64,000 nucleotides of DNA from Dictyostelium discoideum (GCA_000004695.1 CM000153.2:3264001-3328000), one strand, 5' to 3'. Shown: positions 1,633 through 56,508, numbered from the stretch's first letter. A program made the numbers and translations. Notes: generated from the sequence alone by a model not told the origin.

Positions 1633-1797
1633 TTTTATTTTTGGAAAAGCGATCAATATACTATTATTATTATTATTATTATTATTTCATTAATGGTGGC
1701 CAATCATCAATTTTATTTTTGGAAAAGCGATCAATATAATAATAATAATATTATTATTATTTTATAAATGGTGGCCAATCATCAATTTTATTTTTTA
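1633..1797. repeat. Tandem duplication (2 units of about 78-82 bp) in the divergent promoter region between nog1 and the amidohydrolase gene; each unit carries GGAAAAGCGATCAATATA ... (ATT)n ... ATGGTGGCCAATCATCAATTTTATTTTT (CCAAT box)
   Basis: Direct read: GGAAAAGCGATCAATATA occurs at 1643 and 1721; TGGTGGCCAATCATCAATTTTATTTTT at about 1693 and 1769. A nearby perfect inverted repeat GGAAATAAAATGATTTTAATTTATTTCC lies at about 1853-1880. Confidence 0.7.
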
Positions 1798-8220: not shown

Positions 8221-10196
8221 AGATTAAAATTTGATAGTTGCTGATTAAATGAATCTGAAAATTTTAATTCATAAACTGATGATGGTATTGAACTTTTATC
8301 TAATTTTTTATTAAAATTTGAACCTAAATCTAAAAAAGTTAAACTATTTGGTAAAATTCCATTGGGTAGAGGATGGTTATATTCTTTTGATAGTTTTAAT
8401 GTTGTCACACCAAATGGAATAGAACCTTTCAATAAAGGATGATTAAATGTTTGACCAAGTTGTAAATAAGTACAAGTTGAAGGAATAACACCGGGTAATA
8501 ACACTTGATTAAAACATTTACCAAAATCAATTCTTTTCAATGATGAATTTAATGGAAATGAATTTAAATCTAATTCTCTATTAAAATGAAAACCAAATTT
8601 TAAAGATTTTAAAGATTTTAAATTTAAAAAACTCTTTGAAATTAATTGATTAAATTTAAAACCACAATATAATGATTCAAGATTATCAGGTAGTCCATTT
8701 TCTTCAATGATTTGATTAAATGTTGAACCGAATTCAATTAAAGTTACATTTTTAGGGAAAGTATCAACTTTTATTGATTTATTACCATTATTAAATTTTT
8801 GACCAAATATAATTGATTTTAATGATATTGGTAATATTGAAATTAAACCTTCTTCTTTTTTTATATCATTCTTAAATTGAATTAAATATTGATCGAATGA
8901 AATACCAAATTCAATATGTTCAACAGTTTGAGGAATACTATTATAATATAAAGTTTGATTAAATGATTCACCAAATGTAATTGATTTTAATGATAAAGGT
9001 AAAATTGAGGGTAGAATAAGTCGATTAAATGATTTACCAAAACTAATTGAATTTAATGTTATTAATGAACTTAAAATAGTAGAATAATTTAAAGGTTGGT
9101 TCCAATCATCACCAAAAATTAAAACTTGTAATGATGTTGGTAGTGTAGATTTCTCAATTGGATAATTAAATTTATTTGATAAACGTAATATCTTTAATTC
9201 TTGTGGTAGTAAATTTAATGGTATTGGATGATTCCAATCACAACCTAAATCTAATTCTGTTAACGATTCACTTAATGAGTATGGATTTAATGGTTTATTA
9301 AAATTTAAACCCATTTTTAAAGTTAAAAGATTTGGACATAAACATTGTAATTGGGAATCATCAATCGGTTGATTAAAATTTCTACCAAATTGAAGATATT
9401 CTAAATCCTCTGGAAGATTTATTAATTCACTATTAAATTCATTACCAAATATAATCCTTTTTACATTTACTGGCCACTCAATTAAATGTAATGGTTGATT
9501 AAATTTAAAATTGAATATCATTGATGTTAAACTTGTAGGAAATTGGTCACTTTTGAATGGTTCATTAAAAAATGGACCAAATTCAATGGTTTCAATAAAA
9601 GAGTTTCTTAAAACTTTTACACTATGTCCTGATAAAATTTCATTTGAATTTATGAATATCCTTTTAAGAGTGATTGGTATTGAACCAATTTGAAAATTTT
9701 CTAAACCAATATCTGTATTTAATGTTAATTTAGTTAGTGATTCACCTAATGCTCCTTTTTCAACCATTGATTTAAATTTACCACCAATTTGTAATGTTAA
9801 TACTTGTGATGGTATTATACCCTTTATTAATGTACTTGTTGAATCAATAATATAAATAGAGGTTAACCATTCCCTATATTCATAATTTAATAATGATTCA
9901 ACCGTAAATTCTCTCTTTTCATTAAAAACTTTTTCATATAAAACAAGATTTTCTAAAATTGTATATTTTAAATAATTATTTCTCCAAATTTTAAAAAATA
10001 AAAAACTATTATCAATTTCATCTTCTTTATTTAAAAAAAATTTTTTTTTTTTAATTTTATTTCTATTTTTATTAATATTATAATTATTATTATTTGAATT
10101 ATTATTATTATTACTATTAAAACCTGGATTATTTAAAGGAATAAAGGTATTTTTTTCAATTGGTTTTTTTTTATAAATTTTACAAAAAAAAAACAT
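7863..10196 (-). CDS. FNIP-repeat-containing protein (Dictyostelium/giant-virus FNIP repeat family), single 777-aa ORF
   Basis: More than 20 tandem copies of the roughly 22-aa unit ...LP.SL..L.FG..FNQ.I... (e.g. FGKSFNRLILPSILPLSLKSITFGESFNQTL; LKFGFHFNRELDLNSFPLNSSLKRIDFGKCFNQVL). N-terminal FLFFKIWRNNYLKY box; internal poly-Asp tract. Confidence 0.8.
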
Positions 10197-10241
10197 TGGT
10201 TTTAAAAAGACCCTTTGGTGATTTGATTTTTTAAAAGATCT

Positions 10242-10314
<73 letters not shown>

Positions 10315-10351
10315 CATTTTTTATTTTTTAATTTAATTTACAAACTTTAAG

Positions 10352-10782
10352 ATGTTGACAAAGATATTAAATAATTTTAAATCTATTAATATAAGGTTTT
10401 TTACAAGACCAGGTTGTTCATTATGTCAGTCTGCCAAAGAAATAATATACCCAGCAGTTGAGGAAGATGTAATTTTCTAAATAAAAAAAAAAAAAAAAAA
10501 ATATATATATATAAAAATCACGTAAATATATTATTTACATTTTTATTTTTTTATTTTTTATTTTTAATTTAGTTTCCAACAAATAGATTCACAATTGAAG
10601 AAATTGATATTGATAAAGAAAATAATAAACAATATTTTGATAAATTTAAAAATGATGTACCAGTTGGTATGATTGATCAAAAAATTATATTTAAACATAG
10701 AATAGATGAAGATAAATTATATTATGATTTAGAAACAATTTTAAGACAACAAATTAAAAAAGAAAAAGAAGAAAAAGAATAA
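10352..10782 (+). CDS. Glutaredoxin-like thioredoxin-fold protein (DUF836 / Glutaredoxin_2 family, YDR286C-like); exons 10352..10459 and 10573..10782
   Basis: MLTKILNNFKSINIRFFTRPGCSLCQSAKEIIYPAVEED | FPTNRFTIEEIDIDKENNKQYFDKFKNDVPVGMIDQKIIFKHRIDEDKLYYDLETILRQQIKKEKEEKE*. CxxC (CSLC) preceded by a mitochondrial-presequence-like N-terminus. Donor GAT|GTAATT, acceptor TTTAG|TTTCC. Confidence 0.6.
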
Positions 10783-10944
10783 AAATAAAATTAAAAAATA
10801 AAATAACACACACACTGCTATCAAAATTTTTAATTTATTTATATACATTTTTTTTTTTTTTTTTATATGTTTTTTTTTTTGTATCGATTTATATTTTTTA
10901 TTTTTTTATTTTTTTTTTAAATAAACCAACAACAATAATTATTG

Positions 10945-11601
<657 letters not shown>

Positions 11602-11706
11602 ATTTCTGATATTGTATTTATAGTGTTGAAATGAAATGCTTTTTGGTTGAAAATATGAAAATGAAAAAAAAAAATAAAATAAAAAAAAAAAAAAAAAAAG
11701 ATTTTG

Positions 11707-11740
<34 letters not shown>

Positions 11741-13200
11741 AAGAATTAAAATGACATAGTGATTATTACATGTAAAAATTTTCAAAAAAAATAAAATAAA
11801 AGACATCAACAAAATACTAATTATTTGGAAAGATTTTATAAAAAACTACATGGTCATGACATGAAGCAAATGATTTGCGTACACCGTACAAGATGCAAAC
11901 AATATCAAAAAGTTGGAAATTAGTTTACCGCTACCACCACCAGAGAATTCAGAGTTTGAAACTTGTTAAGAAAGTGATAAAGATGGTGCTATGGTTTCCG
12001 TTGTCTCTCATAAAAATTTTGATGGTTGATGCACCTTCTCAAGCCCTACTGTTTCAATCAATCAAAAAAAGCAGGTATCTTTTAGATAATTAATTCAACA
12101 TTGAATATAAAAGAGATAAATTTAGCATATTGTTTTTTATTTTAAGGGGATAGGCCCCATTTTCAAAAAATGGCGGGGAACCTATGACCCTGTGTAAACC
12201 AAAGAATTCATTTAGTTTTTTGATTTAAAAATTAAAAAGAATAATAAAAAAAATAAAAATAAAATAAATAAAAAAAAGGTAATAACTATTTAATTAAATT
12301 ATTTATTCTGTCCTCTCATTTATCTTTTTTTTTAAAAAATAAAATTAGTAAACGAAAATAAAAAATCAATTTATTCCCTATTTGTTCATCAATATATATT
12401 TATATAAAATTTATTCCCTACTTGTTCTCCAAAATAAAAAAACAATTACAAAAAATGAATAATTAAATTCCTAAAATTTTTGGTTGAATATTCGAGTTTT
12501 ACGATTTCCCGAGGATTTAATATTAAAAAAAAAAAACAATTCATGACCAGCCCTAATCATAAAAAAACCACTAAAACATGCAAAGATTGGAAAAAAAAAA
12601 AAATAAAAATAAAAAAAAAAAACAAAATTAAAATAAATAAATAAAAGACACTTTCATTATAATTATAATTTTATTTTATTTTTTTTTATTTTGTTTTTTA
12701 ATTTTAATTTTTAGATATTGATAAAAACACAAAAGAAAAAAAAAAAAAATATTTTCGTTTTTATTTTCTTTTATTTTTTTTTTTAGTATTATTTAAAAAA
12801 AAAAAAAAAAATAATTTGTTTTATTTTTTTAATTTTTTTTTTTATTTTTGTTTTTTTTTTTCATTTTTTATTTATTTTTTTTTATTCACTATCTATTATG
12901 AATAGCAGAAATTATTCGATTGAAACCTCTTCAAATAAAATAATATACTTTTTTTTATTTTTTTTTTATTTAATTATTTTTTTTTTTAATTTCAAAAAAT
13001 AAAATATCCTCTCGTTGTTCTTCAAAATAAAAAATAAAATATAAAAAAAATAAATAAAAAAAATAATAATAATAAATAAAAAAATAAAAACTTTATTTAA
13101 TTTTATTTAATTTTTTTTTTTTTTTTTTTTTTCAACCAAAAACTAAATTTGTTTTTTATATTAAGACTGACTTAAATTGAGATTATTTTTATGGAAATAA

Positions 13201-13828
13201 TTATTCAGTTGGATAAATTTCAAAATATTCAATGGCATACTTATGATGAATGATTTATTTTTAAATTAGTACAACTTTTTTTAATCAATGTAAAAATAGT
13301 GAATAATATAATTATTATAACTTACTTTTCTAAGTTCTTCACGTGTAATACATTTGTCATCATCAGAATCCACATCTTCAAACATTGAGTTGGCCAAGAC
13401 TTTAGCTTGAGCTTCATTTGAACCACAAGTAACGAAAAATTGTCTGGCCTCATCCCAAGTAATTTTATTATCTTTATTTGAATCAGCCTATAAAATTTTA
13501 TTTATTTTTTTATTTTTAAAAATATTAAATTTCAATTACTATGTTTTTATGGGAAAGATTAATATTTATATATTTAATATATATATATTACATTAAAAAT
13601 AGTATCAACGAATTTTTTTAAACAATCTTCAGCTTTAATAATATAATCTACAAGTAATGCAGCTTTAACTTCATTAACCGAAAGTTTTCCATCTTTGTCA
13701 TGATCAAATAGTTCAAATAATGAATTGGTTGCCAAAGTTGGGTTTGGGTATTTGCATTTCTTGTACATGTCATTAATTTCTTTCTTTGAAAATTGGTTAT
13801 CACCATTTTTATCAAATGATTTAATCAT
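13201..13828 (-). CDS. EF-hand calcium-binding protein (4 EF-hand loops; Dictyostelium Cbp-like); exons 13592..13828, 13326..13487, 13201..13239 (last exon uncertain)
   Basis: [24 protein letters not shown]...[42 protein letters not shown] | [54 protein letters not shown] | [12 protein letters not shown]. Canonical 12-residue loops [36 protein letters not shown] and [12 protein letters not shown]. Donors GTAATA and GTAAGT. Confidence 0.6.
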
Positions 13829-14322
13829 TTCATTCTTTAATTTAAAAATATAAAATAAATTTTTTTTTTTTTTTTTTTTTTTTTTAAACGGTTCTTATAT
13901 TTTTAAGAACCCACACCAAAAATAAAAAATATTATAATTCCCATTTTTTTTTTTTTTATTTAAATTATTTTTTCCAAATTATATTCATTTTCTAATTTTT
14001 TACCCATTTAAAACAGTTTTCAAATAAGGTAAGAGTGTTTAAACTTTTTTTTTTTTTTATTTTTTTTTTTTTTATTTTTTTTATTTCCTTATATTGATTT
14101 TGTTTTTTTAAATTTAATTATTATTTTTTTTACAAATTGATTTTTTTTATTATTTTATTTATAATTATGTTGAATTTATGATTTTATATAATTTTATAAT
14201 AACAATCTTAACTTCAACACTTTAAATCTAAGCACAAAACCCAAAGTTAGAACTCCAGCTACCTAACAGTTATATATATATTAAAAAAAAAAATAATTAG
14301 AATTTAATTATTAATATAAATA

Positions 14323-14712
14323 TTATATAGATATATTATATTTTTTGATCAAAAAAAAAATAATAATAATAGTAATAATAATAATAATAATAAAATATAT
14401 GATACATACTAAAATCTCTTTTGAACTTATTACTCTTAAAAATACAGATACTAAATATTGAACTCTATTTGAATTTTCTAAATTCTCTTCCACTATTGGT
14501 TTAAATCCTTTGATTTTAAATGCTAATAGTCTACCATCAAAATTTGGTTGTGCAACTGATGATTCCAATACAATATAAGGTATGTAAAATATTGTTGGCT
14601 CATCATTTTTAGTTTCTTCACCATTATAACTAAAAATTTCAAAGTTATCAACACTGATTCCATAAATTCTCAAAAATGCAAGACTTACAAAGTTATCAAC
14701 ACTATTTGTCAT
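14323..14712 (-). CDS. Hypothetical protein, 5' exon(s); likely true start ATG at 14712 (MTNSVDNF...), GTATGT donor near 14411; 3' end not resolved
   Basis: The ORF track gives 14323..14733, but the first 7 residues come from an alternative start inside the repeat array. Translation is MTNSVDNFVSLAFLRIYGISVDNFEIFSYNGEETKNDEPTIFYIPYIVLESSVAQPNFDGRLLAFKIKGFKPIVEENLENSNRVQYLVSVFLRVIS. No homology recognised. Confidence 0.3.
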   Translation of the reverse strand: MTNSVDNFVSLAFLRIYGISVDNFEIFSYNGEETKNDEPTIFYIPYIVLESSVAQPNFDGRLLAFKIKGFKPIVEENLENSNRVQYLVSVFLRVISSKEILVCIIYFIIIIIITIIIIFFLIKKYNISI

Positions 14713-14905
14713 TAAAACTGAACTCAGTTGCAAATTTCATTTAACCAAAAACATACAAAGTTATCAACACTATTTGTCATTAAAACTGTACTGAGTTTGT
14801 TTCAAATTTCAATTTACAAAAGACATACAAAGTTATCAACACTATTTGCCCAATTTGTAAATTTAAGGGAAAGGGACACACAAAGTTATCAACACTATTT
14901 GTCCT
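14636..14905. repeat. Array of 5 dispersed-tandem copies (spacing about 53-72 bp) of the motif CAAAGTTATCAACACT(ATTTGTCAT); it is the reverse complement of ATGACAAATAGTGTTGATAACTTTG, i.e. the start codon plus first 8 codons of the gene at 14323..14712
   Basis: Direct read: copies at about 14637, 14690, 14757, 14829 and 14881 on the + strand. Copies 2 and 3 retain an intact ATG on the minus strand; copies 4 and 5 are degenerate (ATTTGCCCA, ATTTGTCCT). Confidence 0.75.
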
Positions 14906-15051
14906 TTGAAAAAAAAATTAATTTCTAAATTAAATAAAATAAAGTTAAAGTTTTCATTTAAAGTTTAAATTTTTTATTTTTTTATTTTTATTTACATTAT
15001 TTATTTATACAATTATATTTTTATTTTTATTTATACAATTTTATTTTTATT

Positions 15052-15333
15052 TTACAAGTAGATAGTTGAATATTCATCGTCATCGTAATAAAGGTCAGAA
15101 TCATATGTTGATTCAACACTTGACAAACTATTTATAGAATCTGATAGAGATTGTATTGTTGTTTTAAATGATAAATTATCCTTTCTTAATAATTCCATTT
15201 CTAATTTTAATTTTTTAATTTCTTGAAAAATTTTATCCTCTTGTTTTTCATTATTTTCTTTCATTGAATCAATTTCTTTATTAATAGAATGGAAATCATT
15301 TTTTAAAGATGTGATTACTTCTTTTAATGACAT
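15052..15333 (-). CDS. Hypothetical small coiled-coil protein (93 aa)
   Basis: MSLKEVITSLKNDFHSINKEIDSMKENNEKQEDKIFQEIKKLKLEMELLRKDNLSFKTTIQSLSDSINSLSSVESTYDSDLYYDDDEYSTIYL*. Heptad-rich, with an acidic C-terminus, flanked upstream by an (ATT)n microsatellite. No homology recognised. Confidence 0.35.
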   Translation of the reverse strand: MSLKEVITSLKNDFHSINKEIDSMKENNEKQEDKIFQEIKKLKLEMELLRKDNLSFKTTIQSLSDSINSLSSVESTYDSDLYYDDDEYSTIYL

Positions 15334-15341
15334 TATTATTA

Positions 15342-15355
15342 TTATTATAATTATA

Positions 15356-15454
<99 letters not shown>

Positions 15455-15455
15455 G
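15342..15455. repeat. (ATT)n / (TTA)n intergenic microsatellite of about 114 bp, followed by a (TATTTATT)n-like tract 15470-15535
   Basis: Direct read. Confidence 0.9.
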
Positions 15456-15502
15456 TATAATTTTTTTTATTTATTTATTTTTATTTATTTATTTATTTTT
15501 TT

Positions 15503-15533
<31 letters not shown>

Positions 15534-15816
15534 CAAATTTTAAAATAATAATACAACATGTAACTTTTTTAAGAGTTATTTTTATTTTACAAAATTATTG
15601 AAAAAAAAAAAAAAAACCAACAAAAAAAAAAATAAGAAAAAAAAATAAAATAATAATAAAATGAAATCACTGAATTGTTTCAAATTATTTTTAAAAAAAA
15701 CCCCTACGGTTTTTATTATAATCATTTTGATCAAAATTTTTTTTTTTTTTTTTTTTTTGGAAGTAAAAAACAATAATAATACAACAGAATTGATTTAAAA
15801 TAATCTCTTTTTAAAT

Positions 15817-17308
15817 TTAAAATTTATCAAGATTTTTAATTCTGCCACCCATTTGAATATCAACAGTGGAACCTTGAGGTCTTAATTCAATGTTATTTGT
15901 ATTTTTTTTTGAATTTCCATTCTTCTTCTTTTTAATTAAAACAATGGCAACAACAATAATTGCAATTAGTGCAAGACCACCTAGAATTGGACCAATGATA
16001 ACACCAATATTTGTTTTCTTTTTATTTTCAGAACCACAATCATCGCCATCATAATCTTCAACACATTGGCATTGACCAACTGTAGTATTACATAAACCAC
16101 CATTAAAACATGAAACTGAACAACTAACACCACTACAATCTATACCTTCATAACCTTGAGTGCATGAACATTCACCAACTGTTGTATTACATGAACCACC
16201 ATTTAAACATTGTGGAACTGTACAATCCTTTGTACCACAATTATCACCATAAAAGTCATTAATACATTGACATTGACCAACTGTTGTATTACATGAACCA
16301 CCATTTAAACATGAAACTGAACAACCAATACCACTACAATCTATACCTTCATAACCTTGAGTGCATGAACATTCACCAACTGTAGTATTACATGAACCAC
16401 CATTTAAACATTGTGGAACTGTACAATCCTTTGTATCACAATCATCACCATAAAAGCCATTTATGCATGAACATTCACCAACTGTTGTATTACATGAACC
16501 ACCATTTAAACATGAAACTGAACAACTAATACCACTGCAATCTACACCTTCATAACCTTGAGGACATGAACATTCACCAACTGTAGTATTACATGAACCA
16601 CTATTTAAACATGAAGCTGAACAACTAATACCACTGCAATCCGTACCTTCATAACCTTGAGCGCACGAACATTCACCAACTGTTGTATTACATGAACCAC
16701 CATTTAAACATTGTGGAACTGTACAATCTTTTAATTCACAATAATCACCATAATGATCATTTATACATTGGCAACCAGTGAGTGGATTACAAGTACCCCC
16801 ATTTAAACATTTTGTATCACAATTTGCATTTGGTTGACCAATGAATTTAATTGATTGTACTTGATTACCATATTTCATTAATATAGTTCTATTAAATAGC
16901 TGAGGTGACAATGAAACTGTTATTTTTGGTAAAACATCATTTGCAATTGATTTACTCTCATCACCAAATAATATTAATTCAATTCTAACTCTTGTATTAT
17001 TATTAAATGTTATTGAATATATTGAACTATCGAAACTAGGATCAATAATAAATTGATCTTCATTTGCTGGATTTTCAATTGTTAATGTAACAATTCTAAT
17101 TGCGCATTGTCCAACTTCTGAATTAATATTATTTTCAAATAATTTATAAATTGAGTTTGACATTGGATTTGGTTGAAATAATTTACTAATTATTGAAATT
17201 GAACCAATCGAAGTTTGACCATATATTGTATAAATATCTAAATATGAACCTGTTACTAATATAGATGCTGTCTGATAGAATAGAATTATTTAAAAGTTAA
17301 TAATAATG

Positions 17309-17391
<83 letters not shown>

Positions 17392-18948
17392 TGATTTAAT
17401 ATAATATTACTTACAATATCATCAATACCATCAGAGTTATAATCACCAATATCAATAGCCGCAGCATAGCCATTAATTGACATTTTTGAACAATCACCAA
17501 CTTGATCTTTTAAATAAATTGGATTTGAAGCATAATTTTTATTATTACCATACAAAATGGTGAATGGGATGTCAGTGTTACCACTGAATAAAAAATCTGC
17601 AAATCCATCATTATTTATATCCCCCAATCTAGGAGAAAAAGCCCAGCTATAGATGTTGCCAACAACTGCTATAACCAAACCATCCGATGGATTTAGATTT
17701 ATACTTAATGTTGTTGTTGGTGGATATTCTGTTTTACCCAAACCAAAAAAGCTATATAGTCACCCCCCGAAGTAAGTCTTGTAAGAATCTAAAATTATTT
17801 AATAAAATGTAAAAATAAGTATAATAACAATAAAGAATAATAAAGAATAAGAATAATCAAAAAATAATAAAGAATAAATTACACCAAAATCATTTAGTCC
17901 ATCATTATTAAAATCTCCAAAAGCATTTGGATGAACATTATTATTTGTTGTGCAACCTAAAAAGCTGAAACTGGTACCTTTGACACCATCATAAACTGGG
18001 ATATATGGTGAGGTAAAAGGGCCTCTACTACCATAAATAATATCGATTGCTATCTGTCCCCTATTTATCATTATATCACCAATCCCATCATTATTCATAT
18101 CATAAGGATAAGCCGCATATGAATTGAAATTATTAATTAAAAAACCATTACTCCCATTTAATGTTGAAGGGTCAAATTCAAACTGTGAATTAACTTGAAA
18201 TTTACCACCGTTTATACCAAATATCATATATGAAATTGGTGTTCCTGAAGTTGCATAAGTTCCTATACTTGCAGAGACCTAAAAAAAAAAAAAAAAAAAA
18301 AATATGTGTTAATACCCATGTGAATACCCCTTTTAAAAACAAAATAAAAAAATAAAAAAAATCTGTACCTACAAATAAATCTTTAATTGAGTCACCATTG
18401 AAATCAATGATTGATCTTACAAACCCAAATGCAATATTAGAGGACGAAACGTGAGAAATATAGAAACCATTATTACCATTCACTGTCGAAAAAGTAGAAG
18501 GTGATATAATTTGATCAGTACCATAGATAACACAAAGTTTTCCTGGTATAATATGTAAAAAAAGAGCAATATCGTCAAACCCATCATTATTTATATCACC
18601 AACAGCTATATTATTCATTCGAACAGTAGCATTTAAAAAAATAAAACCATTTGAACCGTTGATCTTTGATATGTCTGTTTGAAAATTAAAATTACTTGCT
18701 AATGGCCCATAAAATACATATAGTCCTTCTGAATTTATAGCATATATCAAATCATCATTACCATCACCGTTCAAGTCTCCATGTGCAATTGAAATTAAAC
18801 TTCTGCCTTCTGTTATTAAAAACCCATTTATTGAATTAATTTGAGAAAATGATGTTGGAAAAATTGAAATTACAACATTGAAATTATAATTTAAAATATA
18901 AAATAAAAATAAAATATAAAAAAAGTTTACCTTATATTTTTCTGTCAT
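15817..18948 (-). CDS. Type-I transmembrane adhesion-receptor-like protein: signal peptide, roughly 7 FG-GAP (integrin-alpha-type beta-propeller) repeats, 7 tenascin-type EGF repeats, TM helix, short basic tail. Four exons (minus): 18373..18948, 17883(or 17885)..18278, 17415..17728(or ..17751), 15817..17271
   Basis: FG-GAP signatures across exons: IAHGDLNGDGNDDLIYAI...YVFYG, IAVGDINNDGFDDIALF...VIYG, DFNGDSIKDLF, AFGDFNNDGLNDF, LGDINNDGFADFLFS...ILYG and DIGDYNSDGIDDI|TASILVTGSYLDIYTIYG. The terminal exon has 7 near-identical units CLNGGSCNTTVGECSC.QGYEG.DCSGISCS.SCLN, then TM IGVIIGPILGGLALIAIIVVAIVLI and KKKKNGNSKKN... The exon 2/3 junction is ambiguous: all three frames carry stops between 17741 and 17788, leaving either a GTGTAA phase-1 donor plus AACAG|AA acceptor, or an unrecognised micro-exon. 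Intron 3 contains an (AAT)n run. Confidence 0.7.
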
Positions 18949-19530
18949 TTTTTGTTAAAAAGGTAACTTTTTTTTCTGATTTTGAATTTTATCGAAATGT
19001 ATTAAATGCTTTTTTTTTTTTTTTTTTTTAAAAAAAATAAGGTCCGTTTTCTATTTTTTACACAAACGACGGTTTTTTTTTTTTTTGGCGAAAAAGATAT
19101 TTTTAAAAAATAAAATCTTTTATTTTGATTGAATTTTAAAATAATCACATGATAATTTCTTTAAATTTTAATATTTAAAAAAAAAAAAAAAATAAAAAAA
19201 AACAAAACTTTTTAAAATAATCATTTTAATTTTAAAACAAAAAAAAAAAAATTATATATAACTTTTGAAAATAAAAAAATAATTTTTTTTTTAATAAAAC
19301 CAATTCAAAACATTATTTAAATTAAACCAAGATAAAAAATTTTTAAAATAGATTTCAAATTTTTATAAAATAATATCCAACAATTTTTGACATTCGATCG
19401 TTTGCCAGATTTTCAAATAATATTTTTTTTTTTTTTATTTTTTTTTTTTTATTTGTTTTCTAAAAAATTGGAAAATATCTTCATCCATAAAATTTGTTAT
19501 TTGATTAAATTTAATTACAACTTTATTTAT

Positions 19531-19911
19531 TTATTTACAAATTTTCTTTTTTAATTTTTTTTTTTTTTTTTTTTTATTGATAAAACCTTTACATTTCTTT
19601 AAATAAAAACCATCATCTTCTTCAATTTCTTCAGCCCATTCAAAGATTGCCTCTTCAGAGATAACATCATTTTCATCACAAAAATCTTGAATTTTAAAGA
19701 TAAGATCTACCATACTATCTTCTCTTGAGAATTTAACCAACAATAAAACTGGTAAAATACTTGTTAAACAATCTAAACCATCTCTATCATAAGCGAATTT
19801 CAAACCATTGATTTCTAATTGAATATTCTCTAAAGGTAATTTCTCTATAATACCACGTCTAATTGTATCACCAACTTCACGATGAAATTTAACTGAATCA
19901 GGTTCAATTGG

Positions 19912-43876: not shown

Positions 43877-44404
43877 TTATAAAGTTTATTTTTTAACCAA
43901 CACTTTGGTTTGTTTTTTTTTTTTTTATTTATTTATTTTTGTTTTTTTTTATTTTATACTTTTTTTTTTTAATGTGTTTGGAAAAATAAAAAAAAAATAA
44001 AAATAAAAAAAAAATAAAATATCTGTTCATTTTTATTTATTTAATTTTTTAAGAAAATGTTATCCGTTCATTTTTGTTTATTTATTATTTTAAGAAAATT
44101 TAAATAAGGAAAATGAAAAAAAGTGGTGTCACACACAAGTTTTGGCATGGATAAAAATAAAAATAAAATTTAAATATTTAAATAAAAAAAAAAATGAAAA
44201 TAAATTTGGTAATTAAAAAATATAAAAAAATAAAAAATTCAAAAAAAAAAAAAAATTTCGTTTTTTTTAAAATCTTTCGTTTTTTAATTTTTTTTTTTTT
44301 TTTTTTAATTTTATTTTTATTTTATTTTTTCATTTTTTTTTTATTTTTTTTTTTTTTTTAATCAACTCCTATACACACAAGCATTAATAAACTCAAATTA
44401 AAGA

Positions 44405-45805: not shown

Positions 45806-46152
45806 TTTATTTTAATTATTTAAAAAATAAAAATAAGAAAAAAAAAAATAAAAAAAAAAAAAGTGAAAGGGGGAGCGAATGAAAATTTTTATTTTTTTTT
45901 TATTTTTTTTTATTTTTTTTTGGTTGATTAAAAAAGCAATGAAATAAAAATAAAATTTCAAATAAAGAACCAAATAAAAATAAAAAGGAATTAAATACAA
46001 TTAAGATTTTAATTATAATAAAATATAAAAAAAAAAGAAAGTTATTAAAAATCTTTATTTTTTTATTTTTATTTTTTTTTTTTATTTTTTTTTTTTTTTT
46101 TATTTTTTTTTTTCCAAAAATTTGCCTCTCAAAAAAATTTTTTTCTTTTTTT

Positions 46153-56059: not shown

Positions 56060-56130
56060 TGCGTATGCTGGGAATCGAACCCAGTTCGCATCCGTGGCAG
56101 GGATGCATCATACCACTAGACCACATACGC
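56060..56130 (-). tRNA. tRNA-Gly (anticodon GCC)
   Basis: Minus-strand sequence GCGTATGTGGTCTAGTGGTATGATGCATCCCTGCCACGGATGCGAACTGGGTTCGATTCCCAGCATACGCA: 7-bp acceptor stem GCGTATG/CATACGC, D-arm TGGTCTAGTGGTA, anticodon stem CATCC/GGATG with loop CTGCCAC (GCC), T-arm GGGTTCGATTCCC. Confidence 0.9.
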
Positions 56131-56205
56131 TTTTTTGATGAATTTTCAGTTCCAATAGAAAAATTTGGGGCATTTTAATTTAGTATGGTACTTTTTAAAA
56201 GGAAT

Positions 56206-56278
56206 CGCCTAGACATGGGATCGAACCATGGACCTAGCGGTTAACAGCCGCTCGCTCTGCCTACTGAGCCATCCAGGC
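56206..56278 (-). tRNA. tRNA-Asn (anticodon GTT)
   Basis: Minus-strand GCCTGGATGGCTCAGTAGGCAGAGCGAGCGGCTGTTAACCGCTAGGTCCATGGTTCGATCCCATGTCTAGGCG: acceptor GCCTGGA/TCTAGGC (one G-T pair), anticodon stem AGCGG/CCGCT with loop CTGTTAA (GTT), T-arm CATGGTTCGATCCCATG. Confidence 0.85.
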
Positions 56279-56508
56279 ACTTTGGATATTTTTGTTCGTA
56301 AAATATCCAGGTTTTTTTTTTAATATTTTGAAATTAAAAAAAGTTTTGTAAATTTTTGATTGTAATAAATTTTTAAAATTCAAAAATGAAACCAATAACA
56401 TTTTAAATTCAAAAAAAAATGTTTCAGTGATCCACACTGGACTGATTTCTAAACAAGAAGAGGTGATTAAATAAAAAAATTTATACATCCATTAAGTTTT
56501 ATTAATTT

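Follow-up and report, generated by a model that had tools for sequence, protein, structure and literature searches.

A short tandem repeat array joined to an apparently chimeric reading frame at a rearranged locus of Dictyostelium discoideum chromosome 4

The reading frame at 14712-14323 on the minus strand of a 64,000-nucleotide stretch of Dictyostelium discoideum chromosome 4 (the window; AX4-like, approximately 20% GC) appears to be a chimera, and its ATG seems to have been taken over from a tandem repeat. The repeat is real and well beyond chance. As a type it is ordinary, a minisatellite, and its history is instructive. We give an even chance to the reading that the array is a near-neutral, locus-specific intergenic minisatellite, kept uniform by recombination, which was accidentally fused to a gene relic. 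On this account, a unit of about 70 bp would have been tandemly duplicated before the sampled D. discoideum lineages split, and some units would have been shortened by deletion. Unequal exchange and gene conversion would remodel the array, with a 15-nt core staying near-identical and the spacers drifting, and the presence of an ATG within the unit would be incidental. About 2.5 kb would have been deleted in the AX4 lineage, a loss that took a small opposite-strand ORF together with the promoter and the 5' 680 bp of a large gene and put the last repeat unit in frame with what remains of that gene's exon 1, its final 72 codons. Just downstream of this relic a truncated cbp4a duplicate would have landed. 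Automatic annotation stretches the repeat-started ORF into a 248-aa fusion with EF-hand exons.

The repeat array and its neighbourhood

Along the minus strand the order is an FG-GAP/EGF gene (ending at 15817), a 93-aa ORF, 147 bp of 6% GC with a T9 run, the array, the ORF and a Cbp4-like EF-hand gene at 13834-13201 (Table 1). A large upstream ORF in the window corresponds to residues 24-507 of DDB_G0285745 (AX4) with 100% identity; neither exact look-ups of the window ORFs in public assemblies nor look-ups of AX4 proteins gave further comparators. The FG-GAP/EGF gene is single in the window (about 16033-19577) and is a tandem duplicate in a divergent strain (10001-12569 and 13221-16528 of locus L004), and its EGF region contains a periodic coding repeat of 99/201/300 bp (window 16033-16753).

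Table 1. Features of the array and its surroundings, in window coordinates unless a locus is named
Feature	Position	Strand	Remarks
93-aa coiled-coil ORF (MSLKEVITSLKNDF...YYDDDEYSTIYL)	15052-15333; L004 16889-17169	-	stop about 147 bp upstream of the array
T9 run	14909-14917	-	adjoins the upstream end of unit A; the divergent strain has T17
Unit A, 53 bp	14853-14905	-	core 14881-14895; AGG at the ATG position; then GTGTGT
Unit B, 72 bp, long type	14781-14852	-	core 14828-14842; GGG at the ATG position; then GTATGT
Unit C, 68 bp, long type	14713-14780	-	core 14756-14770; ATG at 14780
Unit D, 48 bp, short type	14665-14712	-	core 14688-14702; ATG at 14712; then GTAAGT
Unit E, terminal partial unit	14637-14664	-	core 14640-14654 within CAGTGTTGATAACTTTGAAA
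Junction or filler, TTTTTAGTTAT, 11 nt	14626-14636	-	between the array and the gene relic
Relic of a 1213-aa gene (final 72 codons of its exon 1)	14410-14625	-	parent intact at L004 19515-20558
Start of intron 1 of the relic gene	14352-14409	-	GTATGT donor at 14409-14404, then an (ATT)n run, into the junction with the cbp4a duplicate
Segmental duplicate of the cbp4a locus	12507-14386	-	equivalent to L002 9095-11555, 80-97% identity

The array consists of head-to-tail units in the minisatellite size class (about 10-100 bp). The 15-mer GTGTTGATAACTTTG occurs in five exact direct copies on the minus strand between 14640 and 14895, compared with about 0.35 expected by chance, and none of 100 shuffles reached five. 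The 9-mer GTTGATAAC has no occurrence outside the array in the whole 64 kb. The first-pass annotation had described a 25-mer at the start of the ORF that recurs upstream with its ATG intact, and a fifth, partial copy inside the coding region. Both descriptions were confirmed: the 25-mer ATGACAAATAGTGTTGATAACTTTG (minus strand) is exact at 14688-14712 and 14756-14780, and the copy within the ORF is the exact 15-mer of unit E. Two more copies of the 25-mer are imperfect (14828-14852, 3 mismatches; 14881-14905, 1 mismatch), so the upstream copies do not degenerate progressively as had been thought, the most distal one having the single mismatch. Core-to-core spacing in the window is 53, 72, 68 and 48 bp. 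The first three values lie within the range of 53-72 bp given earlier, and the 48-bp interval falls outside it. The earlier view that nothing is conserved between copies does not hold either: TRF found a tandem unit of 68-72 bp in 2.3-2.4 copies with 88-89% matches, neighbouring units have 50-nt blocks in common with 92% identity, and all five units and spacers can be aligned, with indels, to one consensus unit, the short ones resembling internal-deletion derivatives. Among the 25-mer copies, differences are confined to the first 3-5 nt, which leaves units A and B without the ATG. The ATG of unit D at 14712 is the one picked as start codon both by the ORF and by the gene model described below.

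The spacer of unit A is similar to that of the short unit 3 of the divergent strain, and the spacer of unit B contains a small palindrome, AAACT..AGTTT. A small conserved palindrome, AACTG-N4-CAGTT, stands directly before TTTTAATGAC in the long units (window 14713-14852; L004 17347-17600) and is missing from the short ones; the CAACTG in it fits the Myb-type YAACKG consensus. Five other tandem duplications of 41-83 bp, in 2-2.8 copies, were observed at window positions 1633-1795, 2262-2467, 44020-44099, 44254-44362 and 45930-46037. They lie in AT-rich, apparently intergenic DNA, so such duplications are frequent in the region.

The array itself (14640-14905) has 28.6% GC. This exceeds both the flanking intergenic DNA (6.2% at 14906-15051 and 8.3% at 15334-15816) and the neighbouring coding ORFs (22-26%). 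A GC island under strong AT mutation pressure suggests either constraint or a recent exon-like origin.

Other identities of the repeat were considered and rejected. A transposon end or dispersed element was rejected for the DNA covered: exact, 3-mismatch and nhmmer searches of the window and loci L001-L004 (about 150 kb of Dictyostelium DNA) found no other copies and no inverted pairs, all copies being direct. Within that DNA, the condition that the first-pass annotation had named as refuting its reading, a common dispersed repeat end, did not apply. Metagenome and viral scans for the repeat found none. A plus-strand coding repeat (66-aa ORF, 14728-14928) was rejected because the units do not have lengths divisible by 3 and the codons are used in a non-coding manner.

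Comparison with a divergent strain and the structure of the reading frame

Three genomes representing two diverged lineages were compared. The AX4-like lineage comprises the window and GCA_054883475.1 (locus L001), which are 99.7% identical, and the divergent lineage is GCA_054859385.1, whose dS to the AX4-like strains is 0.07-0.12. Locus L004 of GCA_054859385.1 is orthologous to the window, with an FG-GAP/EGF gene that is 91% identical and the same 93-aa ORF. Between the lineages this ORF shows 3 amino-acid changes and a dN/dS of 0.16. Its codon usage is coding-like, an (AAT)51 run lies ahead of it, and it is uncalled in the NCBI annotations of both assemblies examined. It is the sole neighbour of the array common to both lineages. 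Right after the same AT-rich flank and T-run, L004 contains an array of six units with spacings of 68, 72, 46, 67 and 38 bp, whose cores have 2, 1, 0, 0, 1 and 0 mismatches. The number of units and the order of unit types therefore vary by lineage, with five units in the window and GCA_054883475.1 and six in GCA_054859385.1. Because the array is present in the divergent lineage too, it is older than the split of the sampled D. discoideum lineages.

Homology between the window and L004 ends just after the last core (...CTTTGAAA), at window 14637, the left breakpoint of the putative deletion. It resumes 2.5 kb further on, where L004 20195-20539 corresponds to window 14626-14278 with 89.7% identity. 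The resumed stretch falls in the 347-aa first exon (L004 19515-20558, MDYLYKK...) of a called 1213-aa gene, which has its own ATG, starts about 1.85 kb downstream of the array and contains no Pfam domain. The intervening 2.5-kb segment (L004 17667-20194) is present in GCA_054859385.1 and missing from the AX4-like strains (window approximately 14637/14625). It contains the promoter and the 5' 680 bp of the large gene and an opposite-strand 140-aa ORF, which is hydrophobic-rich (L004 18195-17773, start context AAAAAATG). The indel is probably a deletion in the AX4 lineage and not an insertion in the other, because in the other lineage the exon is complete, stays in frame and begins with a start of its own. 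The array of the divergent strain lies between the 3' ends of two convergent ORFs, the 93-aa ORF and the opposite-strand 140-aa ORF, and not in promoter position; in the window, the chimeric ORF follows downstream of it.

The ORF at 14712-14323 is composed of units D and E, the 11-nt junction, the 72 relic codons and a read-through into the intron of the relic gene. The relic differs from the parent exon at 7 of 216 nt (94.6% amino-acid identity), and the remainder of the 1213-aa gene is absent from the window. The array would predate the fusion, and what looks like the ORF's own start would be borrowed from the repeat. The first-pass annotation had proposed serial short duplications of the gene's own translation start. 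Serial tandem duplication is borne out, but the units are not copies of that start, as the divergent lineage has the array and lacks this ORF next to it. The multiple in-frame or alternative start sites proposed at the same time are not supported: the ATG at 14780 (unit C) starts an 18-codon ORF (14780-14724) in another frame than the main ORF, and an ATG is present in 5 of 11 non-redundant units. In our reading, no splice-compatible alternative start in the window yields an ORF. The ORF contains no Pfam domain and has no homolog among 1.84 billion representative proteins. A word-indexed protein search with the 123-aa ORF model also gave no match; it missed the gene model P0001 even though P0001 contains the first 101 residues exactly, so this is a weak negative, the method being unreliable for short, low-complexity-rich Dictyostelium queries.

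Downstream of the relic, the duplicate of cbp4a and its flanks, when compared with the true cbp4a locus (L002), lacks about 470 bp at 13904/13880. Exon 1 (MVTKKEFLEDLTNAT) is lost with them, as are the proximal promoter and the first part of intron 1. Exons 2-4 remain intact (13834-13592, 13487-13326 and 13239-13201), and the intron-1 acceptor is kept. Window 13201-13834 (minus strand) therefore holds a third Cbp4-type EF-hand copy, 86-89% identical to Cbp4a and Cbp4b, with the reading frame of exons 2-4 intact. Protein searches returned no AX4 protein corresponding to this EF-hand copy or to P0001, and the copy may thus belong to the chimeric model or have become a pseudogene. A transmembrane-tail second exon at 14262-14196 was rejected, since its codon usage is non-coding and the stretch belongs to the intergenic part of the cbp4a-derived duplicate.

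P0001 is a 248-aa automatic model in GCA_054883475.1 that joins the first 101 codons of the ORF, through a 575-nt intron, to 'NEMIKSF...'. An intron of this length is long for Dictyostelium. The EF-hand part of the window is 100% identical to P0001, and the whole model could be rebuilt exactly from window 14712-14410, 13834-13592, 13487-13326 and 13239-13201. Its parts are 29 repeat-derived codons, the 72-codon relic and exons 2-4 of the duplicated cbp4a, and the model connects, in frame, the relic's own genuine donor at 14409 with the acceptor at 13835, the genuine one of cbp4 intron 1. In the AX4 lineage, the minisatellite may have been co-opted by a very young EF-hand gene, chimeric and in three parts, whose 5' end (start codon, 5' UTR and promoter-proximal region) it would now supply and whose product would have a novel N-terminus. 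We consider this unlikely. Like chimeric genes or pseudogenes that arise from a deletion combined with segmental duplication (exon shuffling, for example jingwei-like fusions), P0001 joins pieces of different origin, here repeat codons, a relic exon and duplicated cbp4a exons 2-4, by means of a genuine parental donor and acceptor. Unlike them, it has a 575-nt intron and no matching AX4 protein was returned, and it is known here as a gene model. If the co-option reading is true, it would be a gene birth through a repeat that donates the start codon, and if the chimeric model is expressed, it would provide a datable case in which a new gene was assembled out of repeat, relic and duplicated gene.

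The fusion of a minisatellite to a relic carries a caution, in that an ORF or automatic gene model that starts in a repeat can be the product of a rearrangement, and a single comparison with a related strain settles the matter. The comparison documents a recently rearranged D. discoideum locus, with an apparent 2.5-kb deletion, two ORFs lost and a truncated cbp4a duplicate. The rearranged arrangement is seen in both AX4-like assemblies examined, the window and GCA_054883475.1.

The pyruvate kinase gene (pyk), a neighbour of cbp4a, contains GTGTTGATAACTTTA in its coding sequence, which agrees with the core at 14/15 positions (L002 12746-12760, L003 12695-12709), where only about 0.03 such matches were expected in the scanned sequence. 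The match is in the same reading frame (GVDNFNEIL in pyk and ISVDNFEIF in the ORF) and extends to 22/25 with unit E when a 3-nt gap is allowed. An origin of the array from pyk was nevertheless rejected: the array of the divergent strain has no cbp4 or pyk nearby, the extended match is not found in its unit 6, and the nhmmer E value is 0.06-0.09. We judged the match to be a coincidence.

Divergence of the core and candidate binding sites

Among units of the same array, identity of the 15-nt core is 95% (100% in the window), whereas it is 58% in the preceding 10 nt, 61% in the following 7 nt and 67% in the alignable rest of the unit. We infer that the identity of the core is caused by recombinational homogenisation and that the array has no dedicated function. 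Between the lineages, changes were found at 4/75 core positions, 12/154 flank positions and 14/132 positions of orthologous spacers, a comparison of two lineages with low power for moderate constraint. The cores did not differ from flank and spacers together (Fisher test, p=0.36), and the Poisson probability of 4 or fewer core changes is 0.06-0.40 at neutral rates of 0.07-0.12. Constraint on the cores down to about 1% divergence was rejected (P=0.007). No conservation of the core above the neutral rate was thus found between the two lineages. All 4 core changes are at G positions and 3 of them are G to A/T, the direction that would be expected under AT-biased mutation pressure; one core copy has lost the G of GATA. 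In the window lineage there were no core changes against about 3 expected (P of about 0.05). Over 500 bp, the window and GCA_054883475.1 differ at 5 positions, all of them in the spacer of unit C, which they make resemble unit B; this clustering is a signature of conversion or unequal exchange.

These properties resemble those of Jeffreys-type minisatellites (VNTRs), which likewise have head-to-tail units of tens of bp, differ between strains in unit number and order (here 5 and 6), carry conversion-like patches such as the one between the two near-identical strains and have a core more uniform than the rest of the unit. Unlike those minisatellites, the present array has only 5-6 units, and its core is locus-specific and AT-rich with a GATA-like centre instead of being G-rich. 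We know of no link of the present array to a recombination hotspot.

Selection on a binding site would be a simpler account than recombination of a sharply bounded, uniform core, and this counts against the minisatellite reading. The array may be a homotypic cluster of candidate protein-binding sites with a regulatory or architectural role for the 93-aa gene or, in AX4, for the chimeric ORF, a possibility that we hold tentatively and with some doubt. The alternative in the first-pass annotation, a cluster of sites for a factor that recognises GTTGATAAC with its GATA-like core, falls under this reading. The core, (A)GTGTTGATAACTTT(G), holds a WGATAR-type TGATAA and an imperfect GTT-N3-AAC palindrome, and in both lineages 5-6 direct copies of this nearly invariant core stand within about 270-310 bp inside units that are otherwise variable. 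The contrast in GC between the array (28.6%) and its 6% flanks is also in favour of binding sites, as is the T-run directly before the array in both lineages; T-runs are typical upstream of Dictyostelium transcription starts. Homotypic clusters are known in the AT-rich intergenic DNA of Dictyostelium, for example repeated G-box/CAE elements, the TTGA repeats of ecmA/ecmB and GATA-like GtaC sites. The present array is like them in having several direct, G/C-containing copies within about 300 bp, a GC island and TGATAA in the core, but it is unlike them in showing no excess conservation between lineages and in its ancestral position 3' of both neighbouring ORFs. It also differs from a single GATA site, as the motif is longer (15-16 nt). 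GATA-type recognition exists in Dictyostelium, where there are GATA-type factors with GATA-like motifs and GtaC peaks are enriched for a GATA-like motif (PMC4506546). A paper on Dictyostelium loop anchors reported no DNA motif, and literature searches found no mention of the present motif and nothing relevant on the neighbouring gene IDs.

Several observations argue against binding sites. The cores have diverged at the neutral rate and along the mutation bias, and one copy is without the G of GATA. The array in its ancestral-like position lies between convergent ORFs, with 1.85 kb and one ORF separating it from the next same-strand gene start. Finally, the motif is absent elsewhere in about 150 kb of Dictyostelium DNA, apart from the match in the pyk coding sequence. 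If the 15-nt core does bind a protein, it would be a new cis-element in a genome in which few are known.

Start codons, splice donors and RNA-level readings

The conserved block ATGACAAATAGTGTTGATAACTTT followed by GTATGTC spans exactly from a start codon to a splice-donor consensus. In an ancestral form of the idea in the first-pass annotation, a small gene would once have begun at the array, and the units could be duplicates of its 5' end (the last part of the 5' UTR, ATG, 8 codons and GTATGT donor). Its body would have been deleted in AX4, the copies being alternative or decaying first exons. The GC of the array is exon-like. In the divergent strain, the approximately 100 bp past the last unit have 30-34% GC, the VDNF frame stays open for 35 codons there with coding-like codon usage (+0.39), and L004 contains one splice-compatible 50-aa ORF (ATG 17416, donor 17440, acceptor 17630). 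Nevertheless, the reading is improbable in view of how the units vary. The ATG is missing in 6/11 units (it is kept in 2/5 units of the window and 3/6 of the divergent strain) and the GT donor in 4/11, yet the central 15-mer is present in all, which is the opposite of what decaying exons predict. A 1-nt deletion in unit 3 of the divergent strain breaks the frame, and spacings of 68, 53, 46 and 38 bp are not multiples of 3. In our reading, no phase-compatible splice yields an ORF in the window, and the hypothetical 50-aa product is without paralog or homolog in the sequences searched.

Tandemly duplicated alternative first exons are similar to the array in that several units have an ATG and, 24 nt later, a donor-like GT(A/G)(A/T)GT. 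They are dissimilar in that many units of the array are without ATG or donor, frames are not kept and there is no productive splice in the window. A spliced-leader or mini-exon array (exon, GT donor and U-rich tract) was rejected as well, on the grounds of a single locus, donors that are not conserved in the other lineage and no Rfam match.

An RNA-level element is very unlikely. In such a case the array would be located in a long 3' UTR of the 93-aa gene or of the opposite-strand 140-aa ORF, and the core (UGUUGAUA) would be a repeated site for an RNA-binding protein, with UGUNNAUA within it as a putative PUF-like sequence. The array begins 147-178 nt past the stop of the 93-aa ORF in both lineages, and on the opposite strand of the divergent strain we read no AATAAA from the stop of the 140-aa ORF to the far side of the array. 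Between the stop of the 93-aa ORF and the array, however, there are many AATAAA signals. Folding was not significant on either strand (z = -0.8 and +0.56), no Rfam match was found in the array at E<=10, and the cores evolve neutrally. The array also remains intact in AX4 despite the loss of the opposite-strand ORF. A cluster of box C/D snoRNAs or other small RNAs was rejected on the same two grounds of folding and Rfam.

Elsewhere in the window, genes for tRNA-Gly(GCC) and tRNA-Asn(GTT) form an adjacent pair at 56060-56279 on the minus strand.
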